DNA of 64,000 nt from Rhynchopus sp. YZ270_cl-10 (Eukaryota). A program made the position numbers and the translations under genes. Location: positions 930,001 through 994,000 of the forward strand of contig OZ037847.1 in assembly GCA_964035575.1 (NCBI GenBank). Direction: 5' to 3'. This document shows, piece by piece, positions 3,216 to 24,950 of this stretch (its first letter is position 1; the number at the start of each line of letters is the position of its first letter). Under the pieces are notes generated by a model. The model ran no database searches and was not told where the DNA came from. It saw only the letters and a list, made by a program, of their open reading frames with translations.

Positions 3216-4188
3216 GCGACCCGGTCGCTTGGTCGCCCAAAAAAAATTTTTTTTTTTTGGTGACCCTGCGTGAAAAAAAATTTTTTTTTTTTTGTTAGAA
3301 AAAAAAATTTTTTTTTTTGTGATGTCGAAAAAAAAATTTTTGGGTCATATGGCCTTATAAGCAACAAAGGCGAACAAGACGACCATTTCCCCGAGACCCC
3401 GCGACCCGGGTCGCGACCCCCATAAAAAAAAAATTTTTTTTTTTTTTTTGGTCGTTGAAAAAATTTTGCCATTTTTTTTATATTTTTTTTTTTGGAAATT
3501 ATGGAATTCGGTTTTGCCTTACGAACCTTATTTTTTTTTTTGGCCCTTTTTTCCTAGTTCTGGCCCTATCTTTCAAATAAAGCCAGAATTTTCAACTTTT
3601 GAGCCTTTTTAAGGCATTTCCCTGCATTTTTCTGCAAAAAAAGACCACAAGAACGCAATTTGCCTTTGCAAAAATTGAAATTTCGAGACAAAAATGTGAA
3701 AAATTTCACAGTCATAAAAACGCTCAGGAAAATAATCGAGGTCCGTTTTTTGGGCAGAGAATGGCGTTTTAGAGGCCCACATACGGTCAAAACATCAAAA
3801 TTTTGGGTTTTTTTGCACTTTTGGACACCCAAGGACCCACTATAAGGGGTGAATTTTTTCTAGCCTGAGATTTCCCTTTGCGAAAAAATAGTATATTTTT
3901 TCTGGAAATATAGTACTCATATTTCCTGAGGTACCCCCAATGCTGCTGAGCAAGGCTCTGATGAGGCCCAGGCCTCCCGGCCGGGAGGCCCGGCCTCCCA
4001 GGCCTCCCGGCCTCCCAAAAAAAAATTTTTTTTTCCGGTGACATCTGCGGAACTTTTTTTTTTTTTTTCCTTAGGAAAAATTTTCGGGTACTTAGCAAAA
4101 TTCGGCAAAAAAATATGGATTTTGCTTACGTCGCTACTGGACCGTCTGTGGTGGTTTTTTTTGGATTTTTTTTTTTGGATTTTTTTTT

Positions 4189-4442
4189 CCGTGCCATACC
4201 CTGCCATACCCTGCCACACCCTGCCAAACCGTGCCGTACCGTGCCAAACCGTGCCATACCGTGCCAAACCGTGCCATACCCTGCCATACCGTGCCATACC
4301 CTGCCAAACCGTGCCATACCCTGCCAAACCGTGCCAAACCGTGCCATACCCTGCCATACCCTGCCATACCCTGCCATACCCTGCCATACCGTGCCATACC
4401 CTGCCAAACCGTGCCATACCGTGCCATACCCTGCCCTACCCT
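4189..4442. repeat. 10-bp minisatellite CC(G/C)TGCCA(T/A)A
   Basis: About 25 slightly variable tandem copies. Confidence 0.95.
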
Positions 4443-4826
4443 TACTAACCCTCTCAAACCCCCCCAAATCTGCCCAAATCCTCTCAAACCCTCCCAAACC
4501 CAAATGTCCGTGACGTCAACTAGCCTAATTTTCGGAGAGCAATAATTTAGGGATATTCCCTCGCTCGGCTGGACGAGTAAAAAACCGGAAGGTGGATTTT
4601 ATGCTTACCTCATTTAGGGGATAATATTTTTTTTCGAAAAAAAACTTAAAAAAATGGAATTGAAAGCCGTGTTCAAAATCTTTCAATTGCGGCCAGGTAC
4701 GATCAAAAATTTGCATCTGGGGTCCCTTCACCGGTTGGAGAGCCCCAAAAACCAAAACTCAAAAGTGGGTCCAAAAAAACGGCTTGGGGTCTAAAGGGTT
4801 AAAAAAAAAAAAGAAAGTAAAAGAAA

Positions 4827-7800
4827 ATGATAACATCAGATAAGAAACTCAAGGAGATAACTCAAGAGTACACCACCGCAATCAAAGCCTATGAGAAGCA
4901 GATCAACCTCCTCGGTAAGGCAATGACGTCTGGGGTATTGAGTGTTGGTACGATCCAAGCCATACAACAGGATGTCGTTCTAATTCAAGACAAGATCGCA
5001 AATCTCAAGTTGGAACAGAAGAAGGCTCTGGTACCATTTCATGAGGAGAAGGAGAAGGATAAGGTTGTCAAGAAGAAGATCACAGACAAGGAGCTTCTAC
5101 CATTCGTACAAGAAGATATCAAGGATCTGAAGACAGCTGTTGCAAAGGCTAAGAAAGATCTCAAAGGTACCTTCTTCAAGCAGAACAAGTCAAGATTCGT
5201 CAGAGACTTCAAACCTGAACAACAAGGGCAGCTGAATGACATCGAGAAGCAACACAAGGAAGCCAAACGTAAGATTCTTGATGATGCAAAAGAGACACAC
5301 AAGGAAGATATCATTCGGGGGAGGCTTGGAATAAAGAAGGAAGAAGAAGAACAGTCAACTATCACTGAAGACCCCAACCATCTGGAGGAACTTATCGCAA
5401 AAACCGCAGTAAAAGTCATCCATGGAGACAAAGGTACAGATGCCAAGATGATAATAGAGCTCCCTGAACCGCTAGATGAGTACTTCTCTTCAACAATACG
5501 TGCACAATATGACACCATCACCGCATTCATTCAGGGAGACTTAGAAGGCAATCGCACCAAGAAGGTTAAGTTTATCTTGATGGCCATCTTCAGCAAACCA
5601 GACAATGAATCGCCCAAACAAATCAGCAAGGAAGTATTCCTCAACAGTGTACTTGCAACAGACGTACTTGACTTAGATGCAGTTATGAAGCAAGGGAATG
5701 AGCTCTTCAACCGCGATGAAGGGGAGTCAGGTTTATTCTTTGTTGGCTTCAAGTATGTCACGATATTAACCTACAACACACAGATGCAGATTGGTGGTGA
5801 ATATATTGATGTTGTGGAGAGGTTCAGTGCCAACTCCAATCTCAAGAAGAATATTGTGAATGTAAAGAATGATGAATACCCAGAAGTCAACAACGCATGC
5901 TTCCGTTTTGCTGTGATGGCACATGAGCATGACTTCCCGAAAGACGCATCACGAGTGAGCAAGTACTACAAGAAGAAGACTGGATGGATTGAGTCAGATT
6001 ATGATTTTTCTATGTTTACTGACTACACGCTTCCTACAACGGATCAGCAAGTCAAACACTTCCTGAAGGAAAACAAGAACACATCAATTAGCATATATGG
6101 TATTGAAGCCACATCCAACTCCGACAAGACAGGCAAGTTCCATGTGTTGAGGCACGAGAAGTCCCCAAAGGAAGACCACATCAACCTCCTCTTCCATGAC
6201 AACCACTACATGCTGATCAAGAACCTGAGCAAGATGATGGGTGATAATAACAAATATGTGTGCCCCAAGTGTTTGTCAGTCAAGAAGGATACCAAGAAGG
6301 AGATTGATGCCCACCTTGAGTCATGCAACGAGAAACCAACACAGAGAACACAGATGGCAAGGTCTGCTATTATTGAGTTCTCCGAGAACAAGATGAAGAA
6401 CAAAGAGATGAAGCCATTCATTATTACAGCAGATTTCGAGAGCTTCCTAGACACAAGAGACCAGGATACGTCATACAGCAAGACAAAGACACAGACAGGT
6501 AAAGATGAGACAACCATTCTCCAAACCCATCGTGCAGCCTCTTTCTCCCTAAAGCTTGTACCCGACACTTCACTCAACTTTACAGGTAAAACACTTTACA
6601 CATACACACCTTCAGATCAAGATGATGCAGTTGAGTACGAGATTGACTTACTTGGTCAATTCAACAATGCCTGCCAGGAGATAGCCGAGGACGTTGCAGC
6701 ATTCATGACCACAAGCCAGAAGGAGTATGGTAGCATTGATAGTGCATGCACCGCATTTACAGCTGAAGATAAGGATAGACATGAAGAAGCCAAGAAGTGT
6801 GCATTCTGCAACAAGACCTTTAACTTCCAAAACATCAAAGTCAGAGACCATTGCCATTTGACTGGGAAGTACAGAAGGGCCTTGTGCTCTTGGTGCAACC
6901 TCAACAACAAGACAGAGTACAACATCCCCATCTACTTCCACAACGCCAGAGGATACGACAACAACTATATCTTCAAGATGCTGAAGCAGTATGACTCAAA
7001 TGGCGTCAATGTTCTGAACACCAACAGCCAAACAACAATGCTGATCAAGATGGACAAGTACACGAAGGTCAAGGTAAATCATGGGAAGGAGATTAAGAAT
7101 AGGAAGATTTCGTTCCAGGTGAAGGATAGTCTACAAGTCATGTCGTCTTCGTTGGACACGCTGTTGAAGAACTTACCCCATGATCAGAAGGTACATCAGC
7201 TAGACTACATCAAGACCACACACAGGGATATTGACGTGAATGATAAAGGCATGCTTGACCTCTTGTTGGGCAAAGGAGTGTTTCCGTATTCGTACTTCGA
7301 CAGTCCCAAGAAGCTAAGTGGATCACTACCATCGAAAGACCTATGGTATGACTGTCTAAGGCAGGATGACATCAAACAAGAAGACTACGATAAAGCCTGC
7401 AGAGTGTGGAACACCCTAAAGTGCAAGACCTTCAAAGACTACCACGACTTCTACCTCAACATGGATGTGCTTGGTCTTGCAGACGTCCTACAGGCACAAA
7501 GGAAGAACCTCCACACAACACATAAGCTGGACATTTGCCACTACTGCAGTCTCCCGAGCTTCAGCTATGATGCATGGCTACTGAAGCAACAAGAAGATGA
7601 TGTGAAGATGAAGACCCTGAAGGACCCAGAACTATACGAGTTGTTTGAGGATCAAAAACGTGGAGGGTTTACATGCACTGTGAAGAGACACTGCAAGGCC
7701 AACAACAAGCACACAAGGAGCGCAGACAACCAAGGCAAAGAAGGAAACACGCACCTGTTGTACATTGACGCAAACAACTTATACGGGTGGGCTATGTGCA

Positions 7801-9101
7801 AGAAGCTTCCCTACGATGATTTCAAGCTGATGGAATGCAAGAGTTTGGACTCAGGAGCAGAGCTCCATCGAGGGTTAACACCCGAGGAGACTGAGAAGAT
7901 GATTGCCGACTACAACCCAGAGAGTGACACAGGTTATGCTCTAGAAGTTGACCTTGAGTACCCTTTGAGCCTCCACGACAAGCACTGGGACTTCCCTCTT
8001 GCACCATACAATAGGTCTGTTAGAAGTGGAGAGCTGTCAGACTACCAGAGGAAAGTACTTGATGATGAGAAGCATGCAGAGGGTGGGAAGCTTATTGCAG
8101 ACTTCAAAGACAGAGTGAAGCAGACATACAACATTGAGTACTTGCAGTTCCTCCTCAGGCAAGGTCTGAAGTTGACGAAGGTCCACCGCATTGTCTCATT
8201 CAAGCAGGACAACATCATGAAGCCATACATTGACAAGAACAGTGCACTGAGAGCACAGGCCAAGAACGATTTCGAGAAGGACCTGTACAAGTTGCTCAAC
8301 AACTCCATCTATGGGAAGACCCTGGAAAATGTTCGTGGTAGGACAGAGATGAAGAACATCCCTTACGACAAGACAAAGTGGGTGAAGGGGAAGGAGGTTC
8401 CAATGACAGAGGAGGAAATCAAGGAGTACATAGCAAAATATCAAAGCAAACCATTCTTCAACTGCAACACTGTCGACCTGAAGAGTAGCAAGATACTTCA
8501 ATTCATGCAGGGGGACGTCACTCTTGACAAGCCTGTTTACATTGGCTCACAAATCCTGGACTACAGCAAGCTTCTCATGAACAGCTTCTTCTACGACACC
8601 CTCATCCCACATTTCGGAAGAGAGAATGTGACCATGGCCTACACCGACACTGACAGCTTTGTGCTGGAGATAACAACAAAGGATCTTGATGAGGAGCTTG
8701 CCAAGCTGTCTGCAGACTTTGACTTCAGCAACTACCCAACAACCCACGAGCTGCATGACGTAAACAACAAGAAGGTCCCAGGGAAGTTCAAAGATGAGCT
8801 GGCTGGTGATGTGATGACTGAGTTCATTGGCTTGAGGGCAAAGTGCTATGCCTACTCAACGATCAAGAAGAACGACGACAACAAGGCCAAGGGTATAGCA
8901 AAGTCTGTCAGTAAAACTCTCAACCTGGACACCTATCGAAGTACCCTTGAATCCCACAAGAAGCACGTTGTGACGATCAACAGCATCGAGAAGAGGGATC
9001 ATGAGCTGCATACAGTGAGGTCTCAGAAGATAGCATTGAGTGCCTTCGATGACAAGAGGTATATTTGCGAGGATGGAGTTACCACAAAGGCCTACCAATA
9101 A
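4827..9101 (+). CDS. polB: Protein-primed family B DNA polymerase (terminal protein region, vOTU-like protease, Zn finger, exonuclease with HNH/EndoVII-like insertion, polymerase)
   Basis: Exo motifs ADFES and FHNARGYD; Pol motifs YIDANNLYGWAM, KLLNNSIYGK, YTDTDS, KCY, KAKG; CAFC..VRDHCHLTGKYRRALCSWCN insertion; NNACFRFA...DNHYMLI Cys/His pair; intact 1424-aa ORF. Confidence 0.97.
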   Translation: MITSDKKLKEITQEYTTAIKAYEKQINLLGKAMTSGVLSVGTIQAIQQDVVLIQDKIANLKLEQKKALVPFHEEKEKDKVVKKKITDKELLPFVQEDIKDLKTAVAKAKKDLKGTFFKQNKSRFVRDFKPEQQGQLNDIEKQHKEAKRKILDDAKETHKEDIIRGRLGIKKEEEEQSTITEDPNHLEELIAKTAVKVIHGDKGTDAKMIIELPEPLDEYFSSTIRAQYDTITAFIQGDLEGNRTKKVKFILMAIFSKPDNESPKQISKEVFLNSVLATDVLDLDAVMKQGNELFNRDEGESGLFFVGFKYVTILTYNTQMQIGGEYIDVVERFSANSNLKKNIVNVKNDEYPEVNNACFRFAVMAHEHDFPKDASRVSKYYKKKTGWIESDYDFSMFTDYTLPTTDQQVKHFLKENKNTSISIYGIEATSNSDKTGKFHVLRHEKSPKEDHINLLFHDNHYMLIKNLSKMMGDNNKYVCPKCLSVKKDTKKEIDAHLESCNEKPTQRTQMARSAIIEFSENKMKNKEMKPFIITADFESFLDTRDQDTSYSKTKTQTGKDETTILQTHRAASFSLKLVPDTSLNFTGKTLYTYTPSDQDDAVEYEIDLLGQFNNACQEIAEDVAAFMTTSQKEYGSIDSACTAFTAEDKDRHEEAKKCAFCNKTFNFQNIKVRDHCHLTGKYRRALCSWCNLNNKTEYNIPIYFHNARGYDNNYIFKMLKQYDSNGVNVLNTNSQTTMLIKMDKYTKVKVNHGKEIKNRKISFQVKDSLQVMSSSLDTLLKNLPHDQKVHQLDYIKTTHRDIDVNDKGMLDLLLGKGVFPYSYFDSPKKLSGSLPSKDLWYDCLRQDDIKQEDYDKACRVWNTLKCKTFKDYHDFYLNMDVLGLADVLQAQRKNLHTTHKLDICHYCSLPSFSYDAWLLKQQEDDVKMKTLKDPELYELFEDQKRGGFTCTVKRHCKANNKHTRSADNQGKEGNTHLLYIDANNLYGWAMCKKLPYDDFKLMECKSLDSGAELHRGLTPEETEKMIADYNPESDTGYALEVDLEYPLSLHDKHWDFPLAPYNRSVRSGELSDYQRKVLDDEKHAEGGKLIADFKDRVKQTYNIEYLQFLLRQGLKLTKVHRIVSFKQDNIMKPYIDKNSALRAQAKNDFEKDLYKLLNNSIYGKTLENVRGRTEMKNIPYDKTKWVKGKEVPMTEEEIKEYIAKYQSKPFFNCNTVDLKSSKILQFMQGDVTLDKPVYIGSQILDYSKLLMNSFFYDTLIPHFGRENVTMAYTDTDSFVLEITTKDLDEELAKLSADFDFSNYPTTHELHDVNNKKVPGKFKDELAGDVMTEFIGLRAKCYAYSTIKKNDDNKAKGIAKSVSKTLNLDTYRSTLESHKKHVVTINSIEKRDHELHTVRSQKIALSAFDDKRYICEDGVTTKAYQ

Positions 9102-9110
9102 GTCTTCAAT

Positions 9111-9133
9111 ATACATATCTCTGCGATATGTAT
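9111..9133. terminator. Palindromic hairpin between convergent polB and MCP genes (putative bidirectional termination/polyadenylation signal)
   Basis: ATACATATC-TCTGC-GATATGTAT, 9-bp stem; exact reverse complement at 14076-14098 between the other convergent pair. Confidence 0.65.
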
Positions 9134-9149
9134 GTCTCTTATAGCAGTC

Positions 9150-10556
9150 TTACAGCACAGCACTGACCTCTTGCACAATCCCTGTCTTCAGGTTAAAGTC
9201 CACAACCTTATCGTAGTACACCAAACAATACAGGTACATGTCGTAGCTGGCCTCTCTCTCAATGTTAACTGTCAAGGTGTTTGCCTGGGTGCTTGAGACA
9301 CTGTCTTGGTTCAATGTGTTCTGAAGGTCAAAGCAGTACATGGGGTAGTACTTCCAGTCGTTGTAGGAGAGCAGCCCTTGAGTGGTGAATCCCATTCCCT
9401 CAGGATCCTTGTAGGCACTATGCATCTTCATGTACTCCTTGTAGGCAGACTCCCACTTGTTCTTACCCACCTCAATTTCAAGATCCTTGCTTGGCACCTT
9501 GATGCCGTTCAGGTCAACAGAGATCTTCCTCACCATACCACTGTCAAAGCGCGACATATCATGCTCTTGACTTGTTTCCCTGTTTTTCGTTTGGCAGAAG
9601 ATGATTGCACGTTTGATCCTTGTGTGCGACTTGATTGGTACAGGCCAGGAGATGTATGTGTCGCCAGCTGCAAACTCCTTTCTCTGAATTTGTGAAGACT
9701 CAAAGACCGCTTGAACCATACCAGACTTGTTGATGTAGCTGAGAACTCCAGCGAGCGGTGAAGGAGCCAAGGTGACACGAGGCATCCAGATCCTCATACC
9801 ATACCCAACCCAGTTCAAGGCACGGTCACTAACCCCAGAAGAGCGAAGAACTAGAGCACTGTCGTCATTCACCTCAAAGTTGAACTCCATAGGTATGTTG
9901 GTGAACATCTTCTTGTGGTGCTGGAATATGTTGAAGATAAGACTGAGAGGAACCATGCAGTGTATCTCTCTGTTCCCTGTGGTGCGTCTTGCGCGGTGTG
10001 AAGTGCTTGAGTCTCTGTTTGCAGTGTCATTGAACCCATCCACAAAGTCATCATTAACAGCATCTTTCCAAGTGATGTAGTGGCTAAGTAGATTGCTCCC
10101 CACAGTGTCGTCGTATTGATTGGTGAAGTGAATGAGCGACTCTGCATTCATCTGTTGTCCTGCAAAGTTGGGAGTGTCCTCGATGTTGACCCCACCGATC
10201 TTGAGTGACTTCCTTCTGAAGAAGTTGAGAACATTTGACGCGAAGGCAGCTTTGTTATCATCATTGTCAGCAAAGGTCCATGCTTCTGTAGCATCCAGGG
10301 TCTTGTGTGCTGCAAGGTCTTCATACCCGTTACCACCTGCGTTTACCTTTACCATCTTGAAGGACATCTCCAAGAACCCTTCAGAGGGGATGATGTGGCT
10401 GCTCTGGTCAAGAAGGGTGAAGGTGAAGTCCCGCTCGACTCTTCCAAACTGGTTCTGCAGGTTGCTTGACTTCCCAGTGTCTTGGATGGTGATGTAGTCG
10501 TACCCACTGACATCGGAGTGTCTCTTGGTTTTCTCACTCAAATTGTAGAAGCTCAT
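9150..10556 (-). CDS. Double jelly-roll major capsid protein (Polinton-type)
   Basis: 468 aa, beta-rich; Polinton MCP-like segments PSEGFLEM, FFRRKSLKIGGVNIE, VPLSLIFNIF, WMPRVTL, VDLNGIKVP, YPMYCFDL; viral gene context. Confidence 0.85.
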   Translation of the reverse strand: MSFYNLSEKTKRHSDVSGYDYITIQDTGKSSNLQNQFGRVERDFTFTLLDQSSHIIPSEGFLEMSFKMVKVNAGGNGYEDLAAHKTLDATEAWTFADNDDNKAAFASNVLNFFRRKSLKIGGVNIEDTPNFAGQQMNAESLIHFTNQYDDTVGSNLLSHYITWKDAVNDDFVDGFNDTANRDSSTSHRARRTTGNREIHCMVPLSLIFNIFQHHKKMFTNIPMEFNFEVNDDSALVLRSSGVSDRALNWVGYGMRIWMPRVTLAPSPLAGVLSYINKSGMVQAVFESSQIQRKEFAAGDTYISWPVPIKSHTRIKRAIIFCQTKNRETSQEHDMSRFDSGMVRKISVDLNGIKVPSKDLEIEVGKNKWESAYKEYMKMHSAYKDPEGMGFTTQGLLSYNDWKYYPMYCFDLQNTLNQDSVSSTQANTLTVNIEREASYDMYLYCLVYYDKVVDFNLKTGIVQEVSAVL

Positions 10557-11452
10557 TTTGATAAGCGGATTCTATCTTGAGCAAATAGAAATTGTCTCAG
10601 CTGTGTTTCATCGTTGAGTATGTCAGGTTTGAGTGTGGGGAATGCTCGTTGTGCTATGCCCTTCATGCGTTCAAAGGATGGGTCTGTCGGTGGGAGGAGC
10701 TTAAGTCTTTTGTTGGTCTTCTGTGGTGTCGGGGTCTCGAGGGAGCTCTGCTCCTGAGTCGGCTCCTGAGTCTTCTGTTCATCATCCCTCTCCTGAGTCT
10801 TCTGTTCATCATCCCTCTCCTGAGTCTTCTGTTCATCATCCCTCTCCTGAGTCTTCTGTTCATCATCCCTCTCCTGAGTCTTCTGTTCATCATCCCTCTC
10901 CTGAGTCTTCTGTTCATCATCCCTCTCCTGAGTCTTCTGTTCATCATCCCTCTCCTGAGTCTTCTGTTCATCATCCCTCTCCTGAGTCTTCTGTTCATCA
11001 TCCCTCTCCTGAGTCTTCTGTTCATCATCCCTCTCCTGAGTCTTCTGTTCATCATCCCTCTCCTGAGTCTTCTGTTCATCATCCCTCTCCTGAGTCTTCT
11101 GTTCATCATCCCTCTCCTGAGTCTTCTGTTCATCATCCCTCTCCTGAGTCTTCTGTTCATCATCCCTCTCCTGAGTCTTCTGTTCATCATCCCTCTCCTG
11201 AGTCTTCTGTTCATCATCCCTCTCCTGAGTCTTCTGTTCATCATCCCTCTCCTGAGTCTTCTGTTCATCATCCCTCTCCTGAGTCTTCTGTTCATCATCC
11301 CTCTCCTGAGTCTTCTGTTCATCATCCCTCTCCTGAGTCTTCTGTTCATCATCCCTCTCCCTCTTCTTAGCTCTTGCCTCTGCTCTGGGGTTACTGTTCA
11401 GATCCTCTTCTTTCCAATTAGGACCACCAATCTTATTCATGAAGCTGTCCAT
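10553..11452 (-). CDS. Acidic repeat protein (ERDDEQKTQ)x22; possibly the C-terminal tail of the integrase ORF
   Basis: Open frame; stop overlaps the MCP start (ATGA); same frame as the integrase core; frame stays open ~100 nt upstream of the ATG. Confidence 0.6.
   Translation of the reverse strand: MDSFMNKIGGPNWKEEDLNSNPRAEARAKKRERDDEQKTQERDDEQKTQERDDEQKTQERDDEQKTQERDDEQKTQERDDEQKTQERDDEQKTQERDDEQKTQERDDEQKTQERDDEQKTQERDDEQKTQERDDEQKTQERDDEQKTQERDDEQKTQERDDEQKTQERDDEQKTQERDDEQKTQERDDEQKTQERDDEQKTQERDDEQKTQERDDEQKTQERDDEQKTQEPTQEQSSLETPTPQKTNKRLKLLPPTDPSFERMKGIAQRAFPTLKPDILNDETQLRQFLFAQDRIRLSK
10766..11359. repeat. Perfect 27-bp coding tandem repeat, 22 copies
   Basis: CTGAGTCTTCTGTTCATCATCCCTCTC repeated with no visible mismatch. 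Confidence 0.97.
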
Positions 11453-11475
11453 TTGTGACTCGTGTTCTGCTTCTT

Positions 11476-11769
11476 CTACAGCTGTGTCTTGTGTATTGTC
11501 TCCCTCTTGTTCTGGAGTAGATCTTGGAGCATCACCAAAGTTCTCCTCCTCCTCCTCCCCTCAGCTCGGGAGCTCTGCTCCTCCTCTTTCACTTTCAACA
11601 ACCTCTCAATCCTCACCTTCCTCCCATTACTCAGTCTTGCATTGACTTGAGCCACACTAACCACACTAAAGATCTCCCTAGAAAACTTTTGCTTTGTCCC
11701 CTTTGCATGTATATTCTTACTCAACAACACCCTCACTCTATCACCAGGTTTCACACTAGACTGTGACAC
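11476..11769 (-). CDS. Integrase C-terminal SH3-like segment, out of frame with the catalytic core
   Basis: VKPGDRVRVLLSKNIHAKGTKQKFSREIFSV matches the GDxVR...KG...WS.EIF segment that follows rve in Polinton integrases; no ATG start. Confidence 0.7.
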   Translation of the reverse strand: MSQSSVKPGDRVRVLLSKNIHAKGTKQKFSREIFSVVSVAQVNARLSNGRKVRIERLLKVKEEEQSSRAEGRRRRRTLVMLQDLLQNKRETIHKTQL

Positions 11770-12517
11770 ACTTTGCTTTATCCAGGTTCATGATGAGTAT
11801 GCTGACATCGTCGTTGGTGACAAGGTTCGGAGGCTTCTTGATGATGCTGTGGTATCTGTTGTTGTAGGCGTACGTTAGCTCCTGAAGGCTGTCTACCCAG
11901 TTTGCTGTCTTGTTGATCTCGAAGTGCTTTTGCAGGATCTCGCGCAGGGTTCTTGAGATGCGGTCGACAATCCCAAGGGCGTTATGGTCTCCAACCTCGT
12001 TCATCTGGTGTTCTATGCTGTGGGCGCTGAAGACTTCCTTCACCATCAGGTTGTTGAATTCTAACCCGTTGTCACTCATGATCGTTTGAGGAAGGTCCTT
12101 CTTATCTGTCTGTATCTGATGTAGTATTGCTGTCAAGGCTTCTTTGACACTACCCATTGTCTTGTTCTTCAGGGGTCTGGTGTACAACTTTCTACTAAAG
12201 ACATCAATCAAGTTCAGGATCCACGAGTAGCCTTTGTTCCTTGTCTTGAGCTTCTGGAAGTCGAGGAGGTCCATCTGCATGACGTGGTTGATCTCGAAGG
12301 CTGTGATGTGACCCGACAGCTTGCTTGGTTTCTTCCTGAACAGCTGATATGCCCTCTGCTTGTGTATGTAGTCCTCTATCTCGTCAAGGGTATACTTTTC
12401 CCCACCATCTTCGGCTGCGCCTGCAAACTGAAAGTCAAACAACCTCGCAGGATCAGTGATGTAGCCTGAGTCTCGCCATAATTTGTTCAAGTTTACTCTT
12501 ACTTCGTTTGAGCTCAT
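11756..12517 (-). CDS. Retroviral-like (rve, DDE-type) integrase catalytic core
   Basis: QMDLLDF, LNLIDVFSRK, IMSDNGLEF, IVDRISRTLRE, YNNRYHSIIKKPP; the third catalytic position reads D (VDR) rather than the usual E. Confidence 0.93.
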   Translation of the reverse strand: MSSNEVRVNLNKLWRDSGYITDPARLFDFQFAGAAEDGGEKYTLDEIEDYIHKQRAYQLFRKKPSKLSGHITAFEINHVMQMDLLDFQKLKTRNKGYSWILNLIDVFSRKLYTRPLKNKTMGSVKEALTAILHQIQTDKKDLPQTIMSDNGLEFNNLMVKEVFSAHSIEHQMNEVGDHNALGIVDRISRTLREILQKHFEINKTANWVDSLQELTYAYNNRYHSIIKKPPNLVTNDDVSILIMNLDKAKCVTV

Positions 12518-12537
12518 TTATTTCTTCTACACAAAAA

Positions 12538-12939
12538 ATGGTCACTACAAGCAGATATCAGAAGACTCCAGTGTACGTATCACCTGTCGACATGCAGAGG
12601 ATTGCAGATGCCTTAGGTGGGAAGAGCAAGACAGTGTCAGTTACGTTGCATGCAAGTGGTATCAAACGGTATCCATTGCCACTAACCCCAAAGCAGAAGG
12701 AGAAGGTCAAGGAGAAGGGGTCAACACGCATCACTTTAAGTCAACCACAGCTGCTGTTCATTGGAGGTGATAGGAAGGAGGGAGGGTTCTTTCAGTTCTT
12801 GGTACCGTTGTTGGCAGCAGGAGCAAGTGCACTCGCAGGCTCGCTTGGGACACAGCTTGGTAGCACAGCAGGGAAGTTCATTGATAGGAAGGTGAATGGA
12901 CGTGGTCTGGTAGCACCTGGTAGAAGGTTAAAAAAATAG
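12538..12939 (+). CDS. pX-like virion core/membrane-active protein
   Basis: KEGG-FFQFLVPLLAAGASAL resembles the adenoviral pX/Polinton GG-hydrophobic helix motif; several GG protease-type sites; AAAAAATG start. Confidence 0.65.
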   Translation: MVTTSRYQKTPVYVSPVDMQRIADALGGKSKTVSVTLHASGIKRYPLPLTPKQKEKVKEKGSTRITLSQPQLLFIGGDRKEGGFFQFLVPLLAAGASALAGSLGTQLGSTAGKFIDRKVNGRGLVAPGRRLKK

Positions 12940-13400
12940 GGGATGTAGCTGAGTCTTCGTTGACCCCTCTTCGAGATGATGAGATTATAGACTGGTGTAG
13001 ACATCAGGGCATAGAGCTGAAAGGTATGGTGATGAGGGATGAGATTACAGACAACATGGATGGGTTGTACTTGATAAACTTAGATGAGAGAGAGGGTAAA
13101 GGAACACATTGGGTAGGTTTCTTCAGCGCAGGACCCCAGACTTTCTACTTTGACCCCCTTGGTTTACCCCCTCCCCAAGAATTGACTGCACACTACAAAC
13201 CCCTCACATACAACACCAATCAAATACAGGATGTCTCTTCTACACTATGTGGCTACTTTGTGTGTTTGTTCTTCAAGTACATGCATAAGTATGAGGACAA
13301 ATATGAAGGCTTCTACGCTATGACACACGGGATCTTTGGCAGCGACACAAAAGAAAACGAACGCGTACTTCTTGAGGATGTGTACGATCTATCAAAATGA
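12924..13400 (+). CDS. Adenain/Ulp1-like maturation cysteine protease (no ATG at the expected start)
   Basis: NLD..GKGTHWV (His), YFDPLG (Asp), QIQDVSSTLCGYF (Gln/Cys); frame open from 12924, first ATG only at 13026. Confidence 0.9.
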   Translation, partial: KVKKIGDVAESSLTPLRDDEIIDWCRHQGIELKGMVMRDEITDNMDGLYLINLDEREGKGTHWVGFFSAGPQTFYFDPLGLPPPQELTAHYKPLTYNTNQIQDVSSTLCGYFVCLFFKYMHKYEDKYEGFYAMTHGIFGSDTKENERVLLEDVYDLSK

Positions 13401-14044
13401 TCTCATATTGTGTAAAGTGCAGGACAAAGACCGCAGATGTCGATGGAGTTCAACGGGCTGTTTGTATAACAAAGAACGGACGTCGAGGTGTGAAGAGCAA
13501 GTGTGCTGATTGCGGTACAAAGAAATTCAGGTTTGCCAAAGGAGCAACACAGGGTGGAGTTGAAGGTGGAGACATTGTGAAGGCACTCAACGACAAGTTC
13601 CCAGACACAGAGTTCCACTTCCCTGTCATGAACGAAAAAACAGGACAAGTCGAGAAGGCTAACTTCATGGGACCAAACACAAAGCTGGAAGAGAGAATCA
13701 AAGACCTTGAGAAGAATGCTGAACGTGCATGGAAGGGAGAGCAGATACCAAAGGAGGACATCATAACACCAGGCAAATCAAGGTTCGACGAGAGTGCGAT
13801 GATACACGACCTGATGTACAAACATGCCTCAAAGACAGGGAAGAGTGGGAAAGATGTGCGTAAGATGAAGCACAAAGCAGACCTACAACTCATCCGATCA
13901 AACATCTACCATGCACTAGACCCCAACAACAAGAGCTCAATAGACAGAGTGCAACATATAGCGAGTATCCCCACCTTCATCCTCAAGATTCTAGGGGAGA
14001 CAGCGTATGGCAAGATTACAGGGAATAGAATAGAGATAAACTAG
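13397..14044 (+). CDS. Zn-ribbon plus parvovirus-type phospholipase A2-like virion protein (PLA2X-like)
   Basis: YCVKC...KNGR...CADCG Zn ribbon; QGGVEGG linker; NFMGPNT loop, FDESAMIHDLMY (HDxxY), KADLQL. Confidence 0.8.
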   Translation: MISYCVKCRTKTADVDGVQRAVCITKNGRRGVKSKCADCGTKKFRFAKGATQGGVEGGDIVKALNDKFPDTEFHFPVMNEKTGQVEKANFMGPNTKLEERIKDLEKNAERAWKGEQIPKEDIITPGKSRFDESAMIHDLMYKHASKTGKSGKDVRKMKHKADLQLIRSNIYHALDPNNKSSIDRVQHIASIPTFILKILGETAYGKITGNRIEIN

Positions 14045-14075
14045 ACTCAGGAGCAGAGCTCCGAAGACTCAAATA

Positions 14076-14098
14076 ATACATATCGCAGAGATATGTAT
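14076..14098. terminator. Second copy (inverted) of the 23-bp viral hairpin between convergent genes
   Basis: ATACATATC-GCAGA-GATATGTAT lies between the stops at 14044 (+) and 14107 (-). Confidence 0.65.
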
Positions 14099-14106
14099 AG
14101 ACACAC

Positions 14107-14316
14107 CTATATTGTGACCAACCCATTCCCAAGCACAACATTATGCCTCTTAGAGATGTCAGCCAGTACATCAAGCACCTTCTTATTGTCTCTTTCTTCT
14201 TGCTTCTCTTGCTTCTCCTCCATATCTACCCCACTACCCTCCACCAAATCACTCCAGGTTCTCTTCCTCCCTGATACCCTTTCACTATCCTTCACTAGAT
14301 TTGACCAGGATGACAT
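14107..14316 (-). CDS. Small hypothetical viral protein (69 aa)
   Basis: AAAAAATG start like neighbouring viral genes; tight packing; repeated WSxLV; VEGSG and VLGNG protease-type sites. Confidence 0.55.
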   Translation of the reverse strand: MSSWSNLVKDSERVSGRKRTWSDLVEGSGVDMEEKQEKQEERDNKKVLDVLADISKRHNVVLGNGLVTI

Positions 14317-14320
14317 TTTT

Positions 14321-15065
14321 TTAGTACGAAGATTTTACTTTGCGAAGGATAACATGATAGTTGACGTTCTCCCCTTGGTTGTTGATGCGCTTCCCATTCT
14401 GGTCTGTGAGCCAGAACCTTATGCTGTTGATCTGTGTCTTGTTGGTGGGGACATAGTACGAGCTGCCAGGTTCTACCACGTTGTACAAACTACTAGGAGG
14501 GAGGGAGGGAGGGTGGGCTGACAACATACAAGATTTGCGACTTGGTGCCTGATGTGCCTGTGTTGTGGTAAGAGTACTTTGGGTTCACAAGATCACAGTG
14601 TACAACAACTGCTTGGATTCCGTTCGTAATGTCTGCGACGTGAGGCGCAGTGTTCACACCTGCACTTATGATGGTGTTCTCAGCAAAGCCTAAGATTCCA
14701 TGGAAGGAGCCTGTTCTGAAGTTCACTTGATAGTTAGCAGGTAGGGTGATCTTAATCTTCTGCAGGGCTAGGATGGGCTCGATTGTGATTTCCGATGGTA
14801 TGTGGTCGTTGATCTCAGAGATGCTGTAGTTCCCGTCACCGAACACTATTGTCTCCCATGAAGAACCGTTGTCACGACTCCACTCAAAGAAGTTGTTGCC
14901 TTGCTGCTGGCTGATGTTTGTCCATGAGTAGTACTGACTGCTTTTAATGAGACTTATCTCATAGCTGTCACCTTCGTCAAGGTATATGGGAGGGTTGTAG
15001 GCTACAGTGAAGTCAGTGGAGATTGGTTCTCCTTCAGAGGAGACAAAGAGTGAGAGTTGTTCCAT
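14321..15065 (-). pseudogene. Minor capsid (penton, single jelly-roll) gene, frameshifted at a (CCCT)n tract
   Basis: ORFs 14493-15065 and 14321-14527 join if one CCCT unit is removed; motifs DFTVAYNPPIYLD, YEISL, GILGF, VHCDLV, RFWLTDQNG are typical of Polinton minor capsids. Confidence 0.8.
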
Positions 15066-15068
15066 TTT

Positions 15069-15245
15069 TTATGAGTTGATTTCTTGTGTGAGGAGTTTGT
15101 GTTCCTCTAGGTCTATGTTGTTGTTGTTGTTCAGAAGCCAGTCAAGGATAGTGGATGCTTCTTGTTTGATTGCTTGACTTGTATTCCCTGCCTTCTTTCC
15201 TCCTATCAATATCGTCAGTCTCTTCATTGCACCCTCGGTGTCCAT
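15069..15245 (-). CDS. Small conserved Polinton-type protein (RL..L.....AGN motif)
   Basis: MKRLTILIGGKKAGNTSQAIKQEASTILDWL resembles a short helical motif recurrent in Polintons; ends 3 nt before the penton start. Confidence 0.6.
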   Translation of the reverse strand: MDTEGAMKRLTILIGGKKAGNTSQAIKQEASTILDWLLNNNNNIDLEEHKLLTQEINS

Positions 15246-15272
15246 TTGATACACACCATTGTTATTGCAAAA

Positions 15273-16013
15273 ATGATACGCAATTACGTTACGAGGAATG
15301 AGTCACCTGAGGATGATGAACATTCAAAGCTTCTTCCGTCGTGGCCATTCAGGATGTTGTCTGTCGGATCTTCTGGGTGTGGGAAGAGCACAGTGATGGG
15401 GAATATGCTGATGAACAAGGAGTTGAAGTTACCGTTTGACAGGGTTTTCGTTATCAGCACAACACTACACCAAAAGATCTACCAGGTTATGATGGAACAC
15501 TTTGCAGACATTGACGAGAAGATACGAAGTGAGCTGGAACGGGAGTTGAAGAAGAAGAAGGTAAGTGAGGAGAAGATCGACGAGACCTTAGAAGCCTTGA
15601 AGCCAACAGCAGAGTTCTTCGACAGTGCGGATGAGTTCGATGTGGAGGACCTTGACCCCAACCAGAAGAACCTTGTGTTGTTGGATGACATTGTGATGGA
15701 GAAGAAACAGAGAGACTTCATCGACCTGTATGTACGTGGACGTCATCGCAACATCTCACCAGTCTACTTGAGTCAGAGCTTCTATGACACCCCAAAGGCG
15801 ATACGACAGAATTGTAGCTGCTTCCTGCTGTTCAACCTCAACAAGAAGGAGAGGCGTATGATAGCGACTTCATGCAGCGACCTTGAGCCTGATGAGTTCA
15901 ACAGTATGTTTGAGGGTCTGCCCCGGTACAACTTCGTCATGATCGACAACCAGCCTGTTGTTCCTGAATTGAAGTATCGAAGGAACTTTGATGAGATTCT
16001 GTTTCCAGGATGA
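15273..16013 (+). CDS. A32/FtsK-HerA family DNA packaging ATPase
   Basis: Walker A GSSGCGKST, Walker B LVLLDD, RGRHRNIS arginine finger, LSQSF..PKAIRQNC; AAAAATG start at 15273. Confidence 0.95.
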   Translation: MIRNYVTRNESPEDDEHSKLLPSWPFRMLSVGSSGCGKSTVMGNMLMNKELKLPFDRVFVISTTLHQKIYQVMMEHFADIDEKIRSELERELKKKKVSEEKIDETLEALKPTAEFFDSADEFDVEDLDPNQKNLVLLDDIVMEKKQRDFIDLYVRGRHRNISPVYLSQSFYDTPKAIRQNCSCFLLFNLNKKERRMIATSCSDLEPDEFNSMFEGLPRYNFVMIDNQPVVPELKYRRNFDEILFPG

Positions 16014-16298
16014 TAAGAGAAACGATGTCCAACAAGACGAGAGACTCAGAAACGAAGGTTCCTCGAGGGAATTCAGCCCGAGATGTGAGTTCGAGTGGGA
16101 GTGTTGGGAGCAAGATAGTGACCGTGATGTGCTGTAGAAGCAAATGTGTAGGGAACCCTAATCTTGTTGTCAAAAGGTAGGTCGATGTGGACATTACTTC
16201 ATCACAAATAGAATAGAACACCCCATACCCCTCCCCTATGTTTGCCACCTCTCCATCACCACGCACCTATCTCATTACACCAACAGGAACACAACACA

Positions 16299-17790
16299 AT
16301 GACGAAATTCCACAAACTGTGGAAGGCACTCAGAATGTGCAGTACACAAGCATCTACCACACCTAATGCACCCAAAGTGAATCGAACTGAGGTGTTTGGT
16401 ATTGTTTTAGATACGAATGGCAAAGTGGTCTCTTTTCTTGTAGCGGTGGGTACAGCGTATGGGCTCTACACGCAAACTGTATGGCACCTCAACTGGACGC
16501 TGAAGAACATTGTCACAGCGAAGTACGACCCCGAAATGCCGAAAGGCATAACATACATCAAGAGAGAGCAAGATGATGAACTGAAGGTAAAGCTGCACGA
16601 ACACATCTGCGACGGTAATGGATTCTTCATGGTGACGGGTGAGAGCGGCTCAGGCAAAACCACAATGATGCAGAATCTGCTCAAAACGGATTATGAGGAC
16701 GGTGTGATCTTCGTGAAAATCAATGCAGCTCACCTGATGGACGTACCTAAAAACCAGCTACCGGGTGTATTTGAAGCGGCCGTGATGAACGAATTTGACG
16801 AGTGCAAGAACCACCCGCGGCGTAAGCTTTCCTTTGACAACTTCATCGGACACGCCAATGGTGTCAGGCTCAAGAACCAGAAGAAGTGGCGGACGTGGCT
16901 CATGCCGATGTGGTTCAAGATTAAGGAGCACCCGCTGATCATCTACATCACTCTGGACACGAAGGACAAATCGCTCAAGCACGAGACTATGCAAGCTATT
17001 GCCGTGGCTGTTAGTGGAATGGCAAGCAACCTTTCATCGAAGGCGAACAAGTGCAAGACCATTCTCGAGTTCTCCAAAACAGGAATCTCGGACCATGTCC
17101 TAGAGCTCCGCGGTGATTACGACGATTTTGCAGTGAAAGCAATGACAGAGACGGAATTCCAGGAGATTGGGAAGCAGGTGTTAAAGGTGAAGGATCCCCA
17201 GAATCTTGTTCCGCCGTATCTCGAGCACTATCACAACTGGTTGGGAGGACACACTAAGGGCTTGATGCAGCTTATGAAGTCTGCGAGACCCAGGAGTATG
17301 CACAGTATTTGTTGCCTTTTTGTACAATATGATTTTCAACCACACATCTCATCGCAGTTGAGTCTGCCACCCCCGAAACAAAGGATAAGGTTTTGGAGCA
17401 GCTGAAGAAGGGTATGTTGTTGTTGTTGGGGTGGGTAGTTTGTCAATTATGAGACCCACGTATTGCACAGAGATCGATGAGGAGTATTACCGTGCATGCG
17501 AAAAGTTGGATGAGGAACCAGAACTGAAGTTGCTCAAGGAAATGGCAGAGGCTGGAGCAAATGGATTAGGCCCGCGCGCTCTCCCAATTACCGTCCTTGC
17601 CAACCTCAGCGAACGCAACTCACACTCGACACTGATCCGCAAAGCGGGCAAAAACAGCGTGAGGATCCACCGCTACTCTCACGCGCTGTACCTGCTTGGT
17701 GTGAAGGAGCCAAATCCAAAGGACGTAAAATTGAAGGAGAAGATTGCAGAAGTGAAGGAGAAGTTCGGGATGAACGCTAAGTCTGCGTGA
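16299..17790 (+). CDS. Spliced P-loop NTPase with an N-terminal hydrophobic segment (exons 16299-17295, 17358-17411, 17471-17790)
   Basis: Walker A VTGESGSGKTT; GT-AG introns 17296-17357 (GTATGC..CGCAG) and 17412-17470 (GTATGT..CACAG) join two ORFs in frame. Confidence 0.7.
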
Positions 17791-18696
17791 TGATATGGGT
17801 GTGGGGTGAAGTACTTTTGTGGTTCTTTTTTTTTTTTGTTTATTTGTGTCTGGAGGAGGTGGGGAAGGGTATGAAAGAAAAAAGAAAAAACAGGGTGTTG
17901 TCAACTGTCCCAACAACACAGGCTCATCCGGGTGTGGGTAGGAATAGTGAATATGTTTTGTGATTATATTTTTTACTTTGATTTGTCTCTGGAGGGGATG
18001 GGAACAACGATGGGTCTTACTTGCACAATATGTGGGGAAAAAAAAAAACCGTCCTATGAGTTGAGTGTATGTCTCTGGTGCTTTGGGTCACAGCGAGGGG
18101 TTTTTGGTGTTGTTTTTATATTTTTCCTTTCCCAAACAAAACAAAAAAAAGCAAAAAAAAAAAAGCAAAAAAAAAAAAAAAAACAGACCGCCTGATGAGT
18201 ATTTTCTTAACTGTCTCTTTTTCACAACACACTCACCACACTCAGACAGGAGTACAACAAACTACACAATGGGAAGGACAACAAATTGTGGTTCAAAAGA
18301 ACCCGTGGTATAGGCCTACAGGGGAACGCCACGTAAAATAAAGACTAACGCGCCATGTGCACTACCTCTTGGGTGGTTGTGGAAACGTGCACTGCTTCCT
18401 GTATAATTTGTATAATTTGGAGATACAGAGTAAACTCACAGCTCCCTACACGGCCGTAAAGGTAAGGAGTATGCAGAATACACCTACAGGCGGAACCATA
18501 TCCATCATCACGTCATCAGGAATACAGTCACCGAAGTCCGAGTCACTGAAGAATCCACTGCTGAAACAGGTATGGCACACGTGCACACAGGTATGTAAAA
18601 GGCTACATAAAAAGTGAATAATGAATAAAATATTGGCGCAGTACATTTCTACCGGGTTTTAATTCCTGCGCCCATCTCTCGATTTCTCCTATTACT

Positions 18697-18991
18697 AGTG
18701 AGGTCTCAGAAGATAGCATTGAGTGCCTTCGATGACAAGAGGTATATTTGCGAGGATGGAGTTACCACAAAGGCCTACCGATAAGTCTTCAATATACATA
18801 TCTCTGCGATATGTATGTCTCTTATAGCAGTCTTACAGCACAGCACTAACCTCTTGCACAATCCCTGTCTTCAGGTTGAAGTCAACAACCTTATCGTAGT
18901 ACACCAAACAATACAGGTACATGTCGTAGCTGGCCTCTCTCTCAATGTTCACTGTCAAGGTGTTTGCCTGGGTGCTTGAGACGCTGTCTTG
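18697..18991 (+). repeat. 295-bp direct copy of the polB-end/hairpin/MCP-end region (9014-9308)
   Basis: Colinear, ungapped, about 6 substitutions. Confidence 0.97.
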
Positions 18992-19675
18992 CAGCAGCAA
19001 CGGCGCCAAGAGGCTTTACAGCAGGCGCAGTCCAAGCAGGGGCAGCAACAGCAACAACTTCTTGAGCAGCAGCTGCTCAGCATGATGGAGGCGCAGAAGG
19101 CCTCGCTCGCGGCAGCGACGTCGCACCGGACGGAAGCCGCGGGTGTGCCGCCGGTCGCGGCAGGGGATAGCGCCACCCTTGCTCAGGCCCTGGCAACCAT
19201 CATGACGTCTCAACGGGAGGGGCAGCTGCAGCAGACCGCCCTTTTGATGCAGCTGGCCGAACAACGGGGTGCGGGGGGGCGGGGGTCAACGGAGGAGGAG
19301 ATCCCGGTGGTGTCGCACCGTGTGGAGGACGTGGCACGGGACCCCCTGCGATGGGCGGAGTACGCGCAGGCGCAGCCCCACCACGGCTACACCCTGCTGG
19401 AGGCCATCAAGGCCCGGGTGGGGTCGGTAACGCCCGACACCGACGCCGCCGACGCCGCGGCCTTCTGCGTGGACTTGGTGGAGTCCATCCTGTTCGGGGC
19501 GGCGCCGATGGACCTGCTGGCGCAAGTCGGCCGGGAGCTCTCCTTCTGGGAGCTACGGGGCAAGACGGGGCGGCCCGGGGCAGCGGCCTACAAGGCCAAG
19601 TTGTGGTCGCAGTCCGCTGTGCCGGCGGGGGAGCGGGCGGCGTATGCGGCTGCTTTCGCGACGGCGAAGGCGAAG
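18992..19675 (+). pseudogene. GC-rich truncated gag-like fragment of a second YR-retrotransposon family
   Basis: EDVARDPLRW..LLE..DAA..LVESILFG..DLL..G..AAAY..RAA..AA aligns by eye with the gag at 59582-60610 (ETVALNPTRW..LLE..DAA..LIQKILKG..DLL..G..AARAF..RAA..AA). Confidence 0.7.
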
Positions 19676-20940
19676 TACAGTACAGTACAGTACAGTACAG
19701 TACAGTACAGTACAGTACAGTACAGTACAGTACAGTACAGTACAGTACAGTACAGTACAGTACAGTACAGTACAGTACAGTACAGTACAGTACAGTACAG
19801 TACAGTACAGTACAGTACAGTACAGTACAGTACAGTACAGTACAGTACAGTACAGTACAGTACAGTACAGTACAGTACAGTACAGTACAGTACAGTACAG
19901 TACAGTACAGTACAGTACAGTACAGTACAGTACAGTACAGTACAGTACAGTACAGTACAGTACAGTACAGTACAGTACAGTACAGTACAGTACAGTACAG
20001 TACAGTACAGTACAGTACAGTACAGTACAGTACAGTACAGTACAGTACAGTACAGTACAGTACAGTACAGTACAGTACAGTACAGTACAGTACAGTACAG
20101 TACAGTACAGTACAGTACAGTACAGTACAGTACAGTACAGTACAGTACAGTACAGTACAGTACAGTACAGTACAGTACAGTACAGTACAGTACAGTACAG
20201 TACAGTACAGTACAGTACAGTACAGTACAGTACAGTACAGTACAGTACAGTACAGTACAGTACAGTACAGTACAGTACAGTACAGTACAGTACAGTACAG
20301 TACAGTACAGTACAGTACAGTACAGTACAGTACAGTACAGTACAGTACAGTACAGTACAGTACAGTACAGTACAGTACAGTACAGTACAGTACAGTACAG
20401 TACAGTACAGTACAGTACAGTACAGTACAGTACAGTACAGTACAGTACAGTACAGTACAGTACAGTACAGTACAGTACAGTACAGTACAGTACAGTACAG
20501 TACAGTACAGTACAGTACAGTACAGTACAGTACAGTACAGTACAGTACAGTACAGTACAGTACAGTACAGTACAGTACAGTACAGTACAGTACAGTACAG
20601 TACAGTACAGTACAGTACAGTACAGTACAGTACAGTACAGTACAGTACAGTACAGTACAGTACAGTACAGTACAGTACAGTACAGTACAGTACAGTACAG
20701 TACAGTACAGTACAGTACAGTACAGTACAGTACAGTACAGTACAGTACAGTACAGTACAGTACAGTACAGTACAGTACAGTACAGTACAGTACAGTACAG
20801 TACAGTACAGTACAGTACAGTACAGTACAGTACAGTACAGTACAGTACAGTACAGTACAGTACAGTACAGTACAGTACAGTACAGTACAGTACAGTACAG
20901 TGCAGTACAGTGCAGTGCAGTACAGTACAGTACACAGTAC
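19674..20940. repeat. (GTACA)n pentanucleotide satellite, ~250 copies
   Basis: Perfect array with a degenerate right end. Confidence 0.99.
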
Positions 20941-24241: not shown

Positions 24242-24950
24242 TCACTCATCGGTCGACTTTAGTTCCAGAGTCACATGCACGTTTTGCGTCCGCTGTTGCG
24301 CCCTGTTCACCTGGGTGATGGCGTTCGAGATGTCGTGCTGCATCCGCTCGCTGCCATCCACGTACCTCTGTGGCATGGAGCTGCTGCGCCATCCGAAGTG
24401 TGTTTGCATCTGCAGCAGAGAAGCGCCACCCTCGGCTGCCGCCGTCGCAGAAGAGCGCCGGAATGCATGTCCAGTGTAGTGACCAGGGTAGCCCATGAAC
24501 TCTGCAATCAGATTTGGAAAGGTGTACAGGGTGTTGATCCCAACAGGCTGAGACTTAAACTTGGTCTGTGTGGACTGCACAAAAAGTCTGTCTGTCTTCA
24601 GTGAGCCTCGTTGCTTCATGTACAGAGACAAGGCCATGCTGAATGAGGATGCTTCCTGGATGAAGAATCGGCCAACTCTGTCTTCAGGGGTTCTGGCTTT
24701 GCAGTGCTCATACGTGATGTACCACCCGTCGTCACCCTTGCGCACAGAACCCGTCTTCTAGTTCACAGCTTCCTTGCATCTGAGTCAACCGACAAAGCAC
24801 ACCGCGGCATACACCTTCACCAATACCCATTTCGGGCCATCAGTGTCCTTCAGGAGGAAGTCTTCCAGCTGCTTCAGCGAGAAGATGGCGCTCTGCCGGG
24901 GTGATTCCTGCGAGGCCCACTGCTTCAGAAGGGCAGTGATTCTCCAATTT
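24242..24950 (-). pseudogene. Crypton-type tyrosine recombinase pseudogene
   Basis: One frame reads G*LRCKEAVN* ... YTGHAFRRSSAT ... HFGWRSSSMPQRY (R, HxxR, W, Y catalytic set) with two in-frame stops at ~24785 and ~24758; 5' end truncated by a repeat. Confidence 0.85.

Follow-up and report, generated by a model that had tools for sequence, protein, structure and literature searches.

The window examined here, a 64,000-nt stretch of DNA (contig OZ037847.1, assembly GCA_964035575.1, Rhynchopus sp. YZ270_cl-10, positions 930,001 to 994,000 of the forward strand), contains an endogenous virus of the Maverick-Polinton type, in which the full set of genes used to recognize that type was found. We regard it as very probable that this element belongs to a multi-copy Maverick-Polinton family with a diplonemid as likely host, that the copy seen here is damaged and without its left end, and that intact members of the family would copy themselves, package their DNA and reinsert. 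Positions 4827-16013 code for a protein-primed DNA polymerase B (PolB), a double jelly-roll (DJR) major capsid protein (MCP), an rve integrase, a pX-like protein, an adenain protease, a phospholipase A2 (PLA2), a penton and an A32 ATPase. A Pfam profile search on the open reading frames (ORFs) of the window was the main basis of these gene calls; PLA2 and penton were missed by this search of the window proteins and were identified by other evidence. A preliminary description of the window had named the same eight genes, all of which were confirmed by Pfam matches, folds or aligned motifs, and had correctly given PolB, MCP and ATPase as uninterrupted (ORFs 4827-9101, 9150-10556 and 15273-16013 are open). 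The genes are as follows:

4827-9101, + strand: protein-primed PolB, intact at 1424 aa, with an endonuclease VII-like insert and a possibly OTU-like region (Pfam, motifs, PolB matches, trees)
9150-10556, - strand: double jelly-roll MCP, 468 aa, intact (Pfam PF21738, structure model, Foldseek)
10553-12517, - strand: rve integrase without chromodomain, frameshifted twice in this copy; its tail is acidic, and the copy number of its 9-aa repeat varies (Pfam rve PF00665, 2.9e-11; siblings)
12538-12939, + strand: pX-like core protein, 133 aa, with a run of 7 A just before its stop codon (Adeno_PX, 0.0067, below the Pfam cut-off for that profile)
12924-13400, + strand: adenain-type protease frame, -1 relative to pX (Peptidase_C5 PF00770, 2.5e-6; alignment)
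13397-14044, + strand: DUF5679 zinc ribbon plus parvovirus-type PLA2 domain, 215 aa (DUF5679 by Pfam, 4.1e-10; PLA2 by neighbours and motifs)
14321-15065, - strand: penton, a minor capsid protein of single jelly-roll type; frame shifted near 14496 here (called from the fold of an intact sibling)
15273-16013, + strand: A32-like packaging ATPase, 246 aa, intact (Pox_A32 PF04665, 6.6e-11)

Gene content and condition of the copy

PolB retains exonuclease and polymerase motifs, includes the Endonuclease_7 Pfam match within its frame and is 35% identical to an adintovirus PolB (E = 3e-129). Its N-terminal region aligns with that of the coral adintovirus PolB (23% identity, pairwise E = 1e-6); the OTU profile gave no match. 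The MCP matched the DJR-like family PF21738 at 2.5e-11, and its model (pLDDT 85.6, from an 84-row alignment) had DJR capsids as best Foldseek matches, i.e., those of iridovirus, PBCV-1, Sputnik and mavirus (E approx. 1e-17, 8-12% identity). A sequence search of the PDB with the MCP profile gave a single weak match, to PBCV-1 (E = 0.03), and recovered no virophage MCP; pairwise, the MCP is 24% identical to an animal-type MCP (E = 8e-13), in a comparison that included no named hexon. The model of an intact sibling penton (P0208) matched the mavirus and adenovirus pentons (E = 4e-8), with low identity (8-13% for capsid and penton against virophages). Structure prediction, which the preliminary description had proposed for each ORF, was thus run for the MCP and a sibling penton, and supported a DJR and a single jelly-roll fold, respectively. 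For the PLA2 region, the nearest ESM-Atlas clusters carry PF08398 (0.91-0.92), and the motifs GP, D-x-x-A-x-x-HD and AD align with the PLA2s of related elements.

The copy in the window is damaged, with two frameshifts in the integrase (near 11772, then between 11560 and 11578), one in the penton, and an absent left end. The lesions at the first integrase site and at the penton site are not distinguishable from assembly error; the frame was open at the first integrase site in contigs of all four sequencing runs compared, and at the penton site in contigs from each of four runs compared. Sibling integrases form a single open frame in 8 of 9 cases (466-852 aa), and their length tracks the number of 9-residue repeats. 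In the window this tail repeat has a 27-bp unit in 22 copies (10763-11360). The copies are perfectly homogeneous, and siblings range from none to approx. 40 copies. The repeat-bearing ORF at 10553-11452 was also considered as a gene of its own and was ruled out, as the siblings show it to be the integrase tail. In the full-length sibling integrase P0200 the Chromo domain was not matched, while two animal-type controls matched it at 2e-4 and 1e-3. Among the starts of hallmark genes, 7 of 7 have AAA directly before the ATG, as compared to 87 of the 1989 ATGs in the whole window. An Rfam search gave no matches.

A family of sibling copies

Sibling copies were taken as members of 90% protein clusters, obtained by exact look-up and all from ENA; figures on members refer to the matches listed. 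The clusters comprise 20 MCP, 24 PolB, 25 penton, 16 pX, 10 integrase, 8 small-ORF and 6 protease sequences, and those listed come from at least 29 ENA contigs, 35 kb to 1.96 Mb long (the window's own included), many of which hold several element genes. Near-identity of the genes was found among these matches: among the 14 listed MCPs, 11 reach an identity of at least 99.4% and 11 are full length, the 14 listed PolBs are 94.7-98.8% identical, and pentons of 246 aa are open in 10 of 14 listed siblings (from the cluster of 25). Remoter subfamilies were represented by PolBs at 83% and 76% and an MCP at 50% identity. When the element genes were compared with contigs of the sequencing runs, 40 coding differences could be typed among the best-supported rows; those listed for MCP were all synonymous (8/8), and those listed for PolB were synonymous in 9 of 22 cases. 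Runs of two studies (X2 and X6) contain both flank and element, and no RNA run was present among the listed runs holding window sequence. More than half of the window's sequence words occur in each of seven runs, which belong to three studies, and one of these studies may be its source. Judged from these sequences, the family is young and multi-copy. The designation "recently active" in the preliminary description therefore fits the family, with its near-identical copies and open frames, and not the copy in the window, which is defective. In one sibling (P0031), a deletion fuses PolB in frame to the pX-like protein.

Host and phylogeny

The methyltransferase gene flanking the element (21351-22334) has eight relatives, i.e., four in EukProt transcriptomes (70-51% identity), two in ENA, one in Diplonema papillatum (51%) and one partial sequence in JGI; that of D. 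papillatum is the only named close match. The nearest named PolBs are those of Flectonema neradi (45% and 44%) and D. papillatum (43%), followed by the coral adintovirus (35%). In a FastTree phylogeny of 53 rows, the PolBs of the window, D. papillatum and F. neradi formed one clade (support 1.0), and the same clade was recovered by IQ-TREE from 28 of these rows (SH-aLRT 100), with coral and snail Mavericks placed separately. The MCP tree (46 rows, 35 of them picked from 150 matches) showed a clade of its own with 8 rows (support 97), and in the ATPase tree the window had no firm place. The phylogenies proposed as a check thus joined PolB to diplonemids and left PolB, MCP and ATPase outside the sampled animal-type clades, the ATPase remaining without placement. 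The AAA gene in the right arm (see below) has short GT-AG introns, which fit a diplonemid host, as canonical introns are typical of Diplonema (PMC10161547). The flanking methyltransferase, the introns and the PolB clade thus suggest that the host, described beforehand as a probable euglenozoan, is likely a diplonemid protist.

An animal adintovirus, or an element of some other organism, could have been mis-joined into a protist contig or recently transferred to it, and the coral adintovirus does appear among the next PolB matches (35%) once the diplonemid matches are passed, while the sequencing runs that hold the sequence bear three different organism labels. We consider such an origin very improbable, as PolB groups with two named diplonemids rather than with coral or snail proteins, copies occur on at least 29 long contigs, and the integrase lacks the chromodomain found in two animal-type controls.

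Relation to known elements

The preliminary description had called the element "Polinton/adintovirus-like". The first part of this name holds; in the strict sense, the element is not an adintovirus, because its integrase has no chromodomain and its host is not an animal (definition of adintoviruses, or Eupolintoviridae, as given in PMC11071296), and it falls outside the animal-type clades. The adintovirus family is now named Eupolintoviridae (PMC12451622). The same eight-gene kit is found in the PLA2-bearing group 2, or Alpha adintovirus-type, Maverick-Polintons (Corynactis coral adintovirus, PolB DAC81289.1); the order of the DUF5679 and PLA2 domains is that of locus L018, and the likely AGT-like terminus of the element may correspond to Maverick-Polinton ends. 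Unlike the Corynactis element, that of the window has a PolB of its own clade, approx. 35% identical, and a likely discoban host; unlike adintovirus-type elements, it has an integrase tail of variable 9-aa repeats instead of a chromodomain, and it has a likely cargo gene with introns.

PLA2 had been described beforehand as best known from animal adintovirus-type elements. As an animal-only marker it was ruled out, since the Gosseviruses and VC35, which are associated with protists, are described as carrying a cysteine protease and a phospholipase (10.64898/2026.06.19.733378). The window resembles these viruses in the protist association and in both enzymes. They come from oomycete and chrysophyte genomes or from lake viromes, and were compared with the window by their description only; the main text of that report contains no diplonemid or euglenozoan term. 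PolB is also like those of D. papillatum (DIPPA_04793, DIPPA_05876) and F. neradi (EukProt EP01060), at 43-45% identity over the region searched; these proteins are labelled hypothetical, and the likeness concerns PolB alone. The likeness to virophages (mavirus, Sputnik) is confined to the DJR capsid and penton folds, at 8-13% identity. Mavirus itself has a protein-primed PolB and an rve integrase.

Adintovirus-like virion genes have been described as found only in animals and their close relatives (PMC8502044), and Mavericks as largely confined to animals and relatives (PMC10120064); Diplonema is absent from the text of the latter, the Table S1 of which lists an older D. papillatum assembly. 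"Polinton" does not occur in the main text of the D. papillatum genome paper, and no diplonemid term was found in 10.64898/2026.10.13.758929. Our literature searches found no diplonemid Polinton, with subscription journals mostly outside their scope and with supplementary files that may list such elements. The expectation that the lineage was probably undescribed agrees with these searches, in which no description was found in print. The element stands apart by a new host group, by clades of its own for PolB and for MCP, and by the unusual junction at its protease. With a diplonemid as host, this young, capsid-complete family of many copies would widen the range of such elements beyond animals and their relatives.

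The pX-protease junction

The first in-frame ATG of the protease (13026) lies approx. 20 residues inside a stretch alignable with the conserved N-terminal helix of its relatives, and the gene has no AAA-ATG start, unlike 7 of 7 hallmark genes. The overlap of pX and protease falls at the 7-A run directly before the pX stop codon. This run is the sole AAA-AAA among 29 lysine pairs in the eight gene frames, and no in-frame slippery heptamer was found in 4130 codons (long frames of 4001-19000). Among the sibling pX rows listed, the C-terminal end was KK in 9 of 15, KKMGV in 3, KKQGV in 2 and another sequence in 1; as judged from these protein ends, the -1 offset of pX and protease appears to be kept across siblings with three pX tails. 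All near-full sibling proteases (4/4) are called from an internal Met.

Starts without ATG were surveyed in 104 loci of relatives plus the window (two truncated rows each were dropped for proteases and integrases). No upstream ATG was found for 3 of 22 assessable proteases and for 5 of 29 integrases. For all 3 ATG-less proteases and for 2 of the 5 ATG-less integrases, an ORF lying upstream in the -1 donor frame carried an A_AAA_AAN heptamer, and the heptamer was located at most 9 nt from the donor stop codon in 4 of the 8 ATG-less cases as compared to 21 of 489 ORFs (P approx. 2e-4, post hoc). A slippery heptamer is the recognized site of -1 frameshifting, and retroviral gag-pro frameshifting offers a parallel. 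We thus suggest, at slightly less than even confidence, that the protease may arise fused to pX, through -1 slippage where the A-run meets the pX stop codon. Such a fusion would carry protease into the core in small quantity.

Several results weigh against a frameshift and some of them equally favor ordinary decay, or a non-AUG (TTG) start, as the cause of the ATG-less protease. Neither the window nor three further donors showed, downstream, a stimulatory structure beyond that of shuffled sequences; A-runs also occur at ordinary starts (3 of the 5 A/T runs of at least 6 bases in the element sit at start codons); an in-frame TTG at 12960 is a possible start; and 19 of the 22 assessable proteases in the surveyed loci have an ATG of their own. 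In addition, the protease cluster has only 6 members, and longer forms may fall in other clusters. Decay or a TTG start would not readily account for the internal Met of all four near-full sibling proteases, for three pX tails (9, 3 and 2 of 15 rows) that appear to hold the same offset, or for the -1 donor ORF and slippery heptamer at every ATG-less protease (3 of 3) and at 2 of the 5 integrases without ATG, and we give this explanation, too, a little under half of our belief.

In adintoviruses, -1 shifts have been predicted for penton tails and for hexon-adenain fusions (PMC11071296), where, as in the window, a slippery heptamer would join a structural protein to an enzyme frame; pX-to-protease and PLA2-to-integrase joins are not among the frameshifts named there. 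Literature searches, with subscription journals mostly outside their scope, found no Maverick frameshift at a junction of the pX-protease type. If true, the frameshift would explain how Polintons package protease and integrase, and it is directly testable.

Other, unrelated Maverick-like elements with an ATG-less integrase or protease frame were seen at L024 (approx. 5200, + strand), L025 (- strand), L085 (13108-13114, + strand) and L008 (8397-8490, + strand); at an A_AAA_AAN site, these frames overlap in -1 with the ORF ahead of them, which is of PLA2, PLA2X or small basic type. In-frame fusions also occur, with protease and integrase joined in L009 (2740-4248) and the protease ending a 678-aa coiled-coil frame in L031 (- strand). 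Some copies (runs X1 and X2) have an insertion within the protease gene at window position 13131.

Proposed life cycle

The observed gene set, the jelly-roll folds of the predicted models, the near-identical copies with open frames and the PolB clade are the basis on which we propose an active viral life cycle, with steps modelled on the biology of Polintons and adenoviruses. An excised linear genome would be copied by protein priming from its terminal repeats, the pX-like protein would condense the DNA, the A32 ATPase would fill a capsid of hexon and penton, adenain would mature the particle, PLA2 may help it to cross membranes, and the rve integrase would insert new copies. Several points weigh against this proposal. 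Among the PolB differences listed, 13 of 22 were non-synonymous; none of the listed siblings, read as proteins, was shown to be intact in every gene; and the 29 contigs only presumably belong to a single assembly. The MCP and ATPase trees leave the window without a named Polintoviricetes group, the identity of the host is based on one flanking gene, no target-site duplication was shown, and self-BLAST, left-versus-right BLAST and a terminus pattern gave no left terminal repeat in the window.

Conceivably, the family is a self-synthesizing transposon that never leaves the genome, with capsid genes as recent baggage and no particles. Scans of IMG/VR and of JGI viral and metagenome contigs with MCP or ATPase gave no relative, and those with PolB gave distant elements only (best segments 26-40% identity); this absence of any relative above 40% speaks for such a transposon, as do several fragmentary or rearranged siblings. 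On the other hand, the whole morphogenesis module is retained, 11 of 14 listed MCPs are full length and 8 of 8 listed MCP differences are synonymous, which makes a family without particles unlikely.

Hairpins and possible dependence on a giant virus

Two non-coding features lie between convergent gene ends of the element:

9111-9133, no strand: hairpin of 23 bp separating the convergent ends of PolB and MCP (same sequence as 14076-14098, inverted; z = -2.9)
14076-14098, no strand: the same 23-bp hairpin again, where another convergent gene pair ends (z = -5.0)

These two copies of one 23-mer palindrome are the only perfect stems of at least 9 bp in 4800-18700, and the hairpin is likely a two-way 3'-end signal. 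As Mimiviridae polyadenylate at hairpins (PMC4402537), an identical signal at both convergent 3' ends raises the question of whether the element depends on a giant virus in the manner of a virophage and would use the transcription machinery of that virus. The AAA before the ATG at all seven hallmark starts points in the same direction, and the abutting genes would leave little room for trans-splicing signals. Against this, the stems measure a mere 9-11 bp, host repeats elsewhere in the window commonly form hairpins too, we saw no giant virus, and identity to virophage MCPs is only 8-12% for the MCP; we therefore judge such dependence improbable. It possibly coexists with the viral life cycle proposed above, with which it is compatible and not mutually exclusive, and has no support beyond the hairpin.

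Taken jointly, these data would describe a diplonemid-specific lineage of Polintoviricetes, common to at least three diplonemids and still multiplying, with a protease made as a core fusion by -1 frameshifting. The latter would exemplify a broader, overlooked rule of the Gag-Pol kind among Mavericks (pX or PLA2X to protease, PLA2 to integrase) by which enzymes are loaded into the virion, and the hairpins may mark dependence on a giant virus of diplonemids. We offer this combined picture tentatively and consider it less likely than not. Bodo saltans virus has been named as the only virus infecting a discoban (PMC12455990, 2025), and the family is a candidate inducible virus in diplonemids, which are culturable and abundant marine protists.

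Right arm, likely right terminus and possible insertion history

The remaining features of the element and of its right edge are as follows:

14107-14316, - strand: ORF of 69 aa, kept in sibling copies (sibling comparison)
16299-17790, + strand: host-type AAA/P-loop gene with two GT-AG introns, 17296-17357 and 17412-17470 (Pfam, splicing, clusters)
18630-18696, no strand: likely right terminal repeat (last six bases one off the (ACT)2 end motif of vertebrate Mavericks)
18697-18991, no strand: 295-bp remnant of another copy, comprising PolB end, hairpin and MCP end (98% identical to 9014-9308)

The introns of the AAA gene measure 62 and 59 nt, and splicing yields one open frame. All three other contigs with members of the AAA-gene clusters also hold element genes, on megabase contigs where adjacency is not implied; contigs of the sequencing runs link the ATPase end to 16136, and overlapping pieces cover 16133-16538. 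The gene is likely a captured host gene, carried as cargo in the right arm of some copies.

The preliminary description had found no termini and had considered the copy possibly truncated. This was borne out for the left end, which is missing; on the right, a likely terminus was found at 18696, with reference to the (ACT)2 terminal motif described for vertebrate Mavericks (PMC8097293). Two contigs of run X4 share the sequence from 18630 onward and have different upstream sequence, which fits a terminal repeat of approx. 67 bp and is no proof of it. A motif taken from the loose end at 18630 was absent from the window, and upstream of PolB only repeats common to many other contigs were seen, with no terminal repeat. 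The remnant of the PolB/MCP junction starts at 18697, exactly where the likely right terminus ends, and contigs of runs X2 and X6 reach 18993 out of other sequence. None of the listed contigs runs across the left junction or across 18696/18697; as the run contigs are short, these gaps prove nothing, and the test for a chimeric assembly is only partial because no listed contig spans a host junction. From this anatomy, we see an even chance that an older copy, represented by the remnant, was hit at its PolB 3' end when the present copy inserted, and that the present copy later lost its left end.

Other features of the window

To the left of the element, an ORF of 721 aa (1026-3191, - strand) lies between palindromic repeats; it has cysteine-protease-like motifs by eye and no convincing Pfam match. 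To the right, a Gag-like, glutamine-rich frame (18992-20934), which matched no Pfam family, is split by a 252-copy AGTAC satellite, and a short tyrosine-recombinase fragment (24242-24637, - strand; PF00589, 8.7e-7) and a protein with three CAP (SCP) domains (36003-37724, + strand) follow. Positions 56187-60821 (- strand) hold a DIRS-like retroelement with gag-like, tyrosine-recombinase-like and RT-RNase H ORFs and identical 208-bp repeats at 56187 and 60614.

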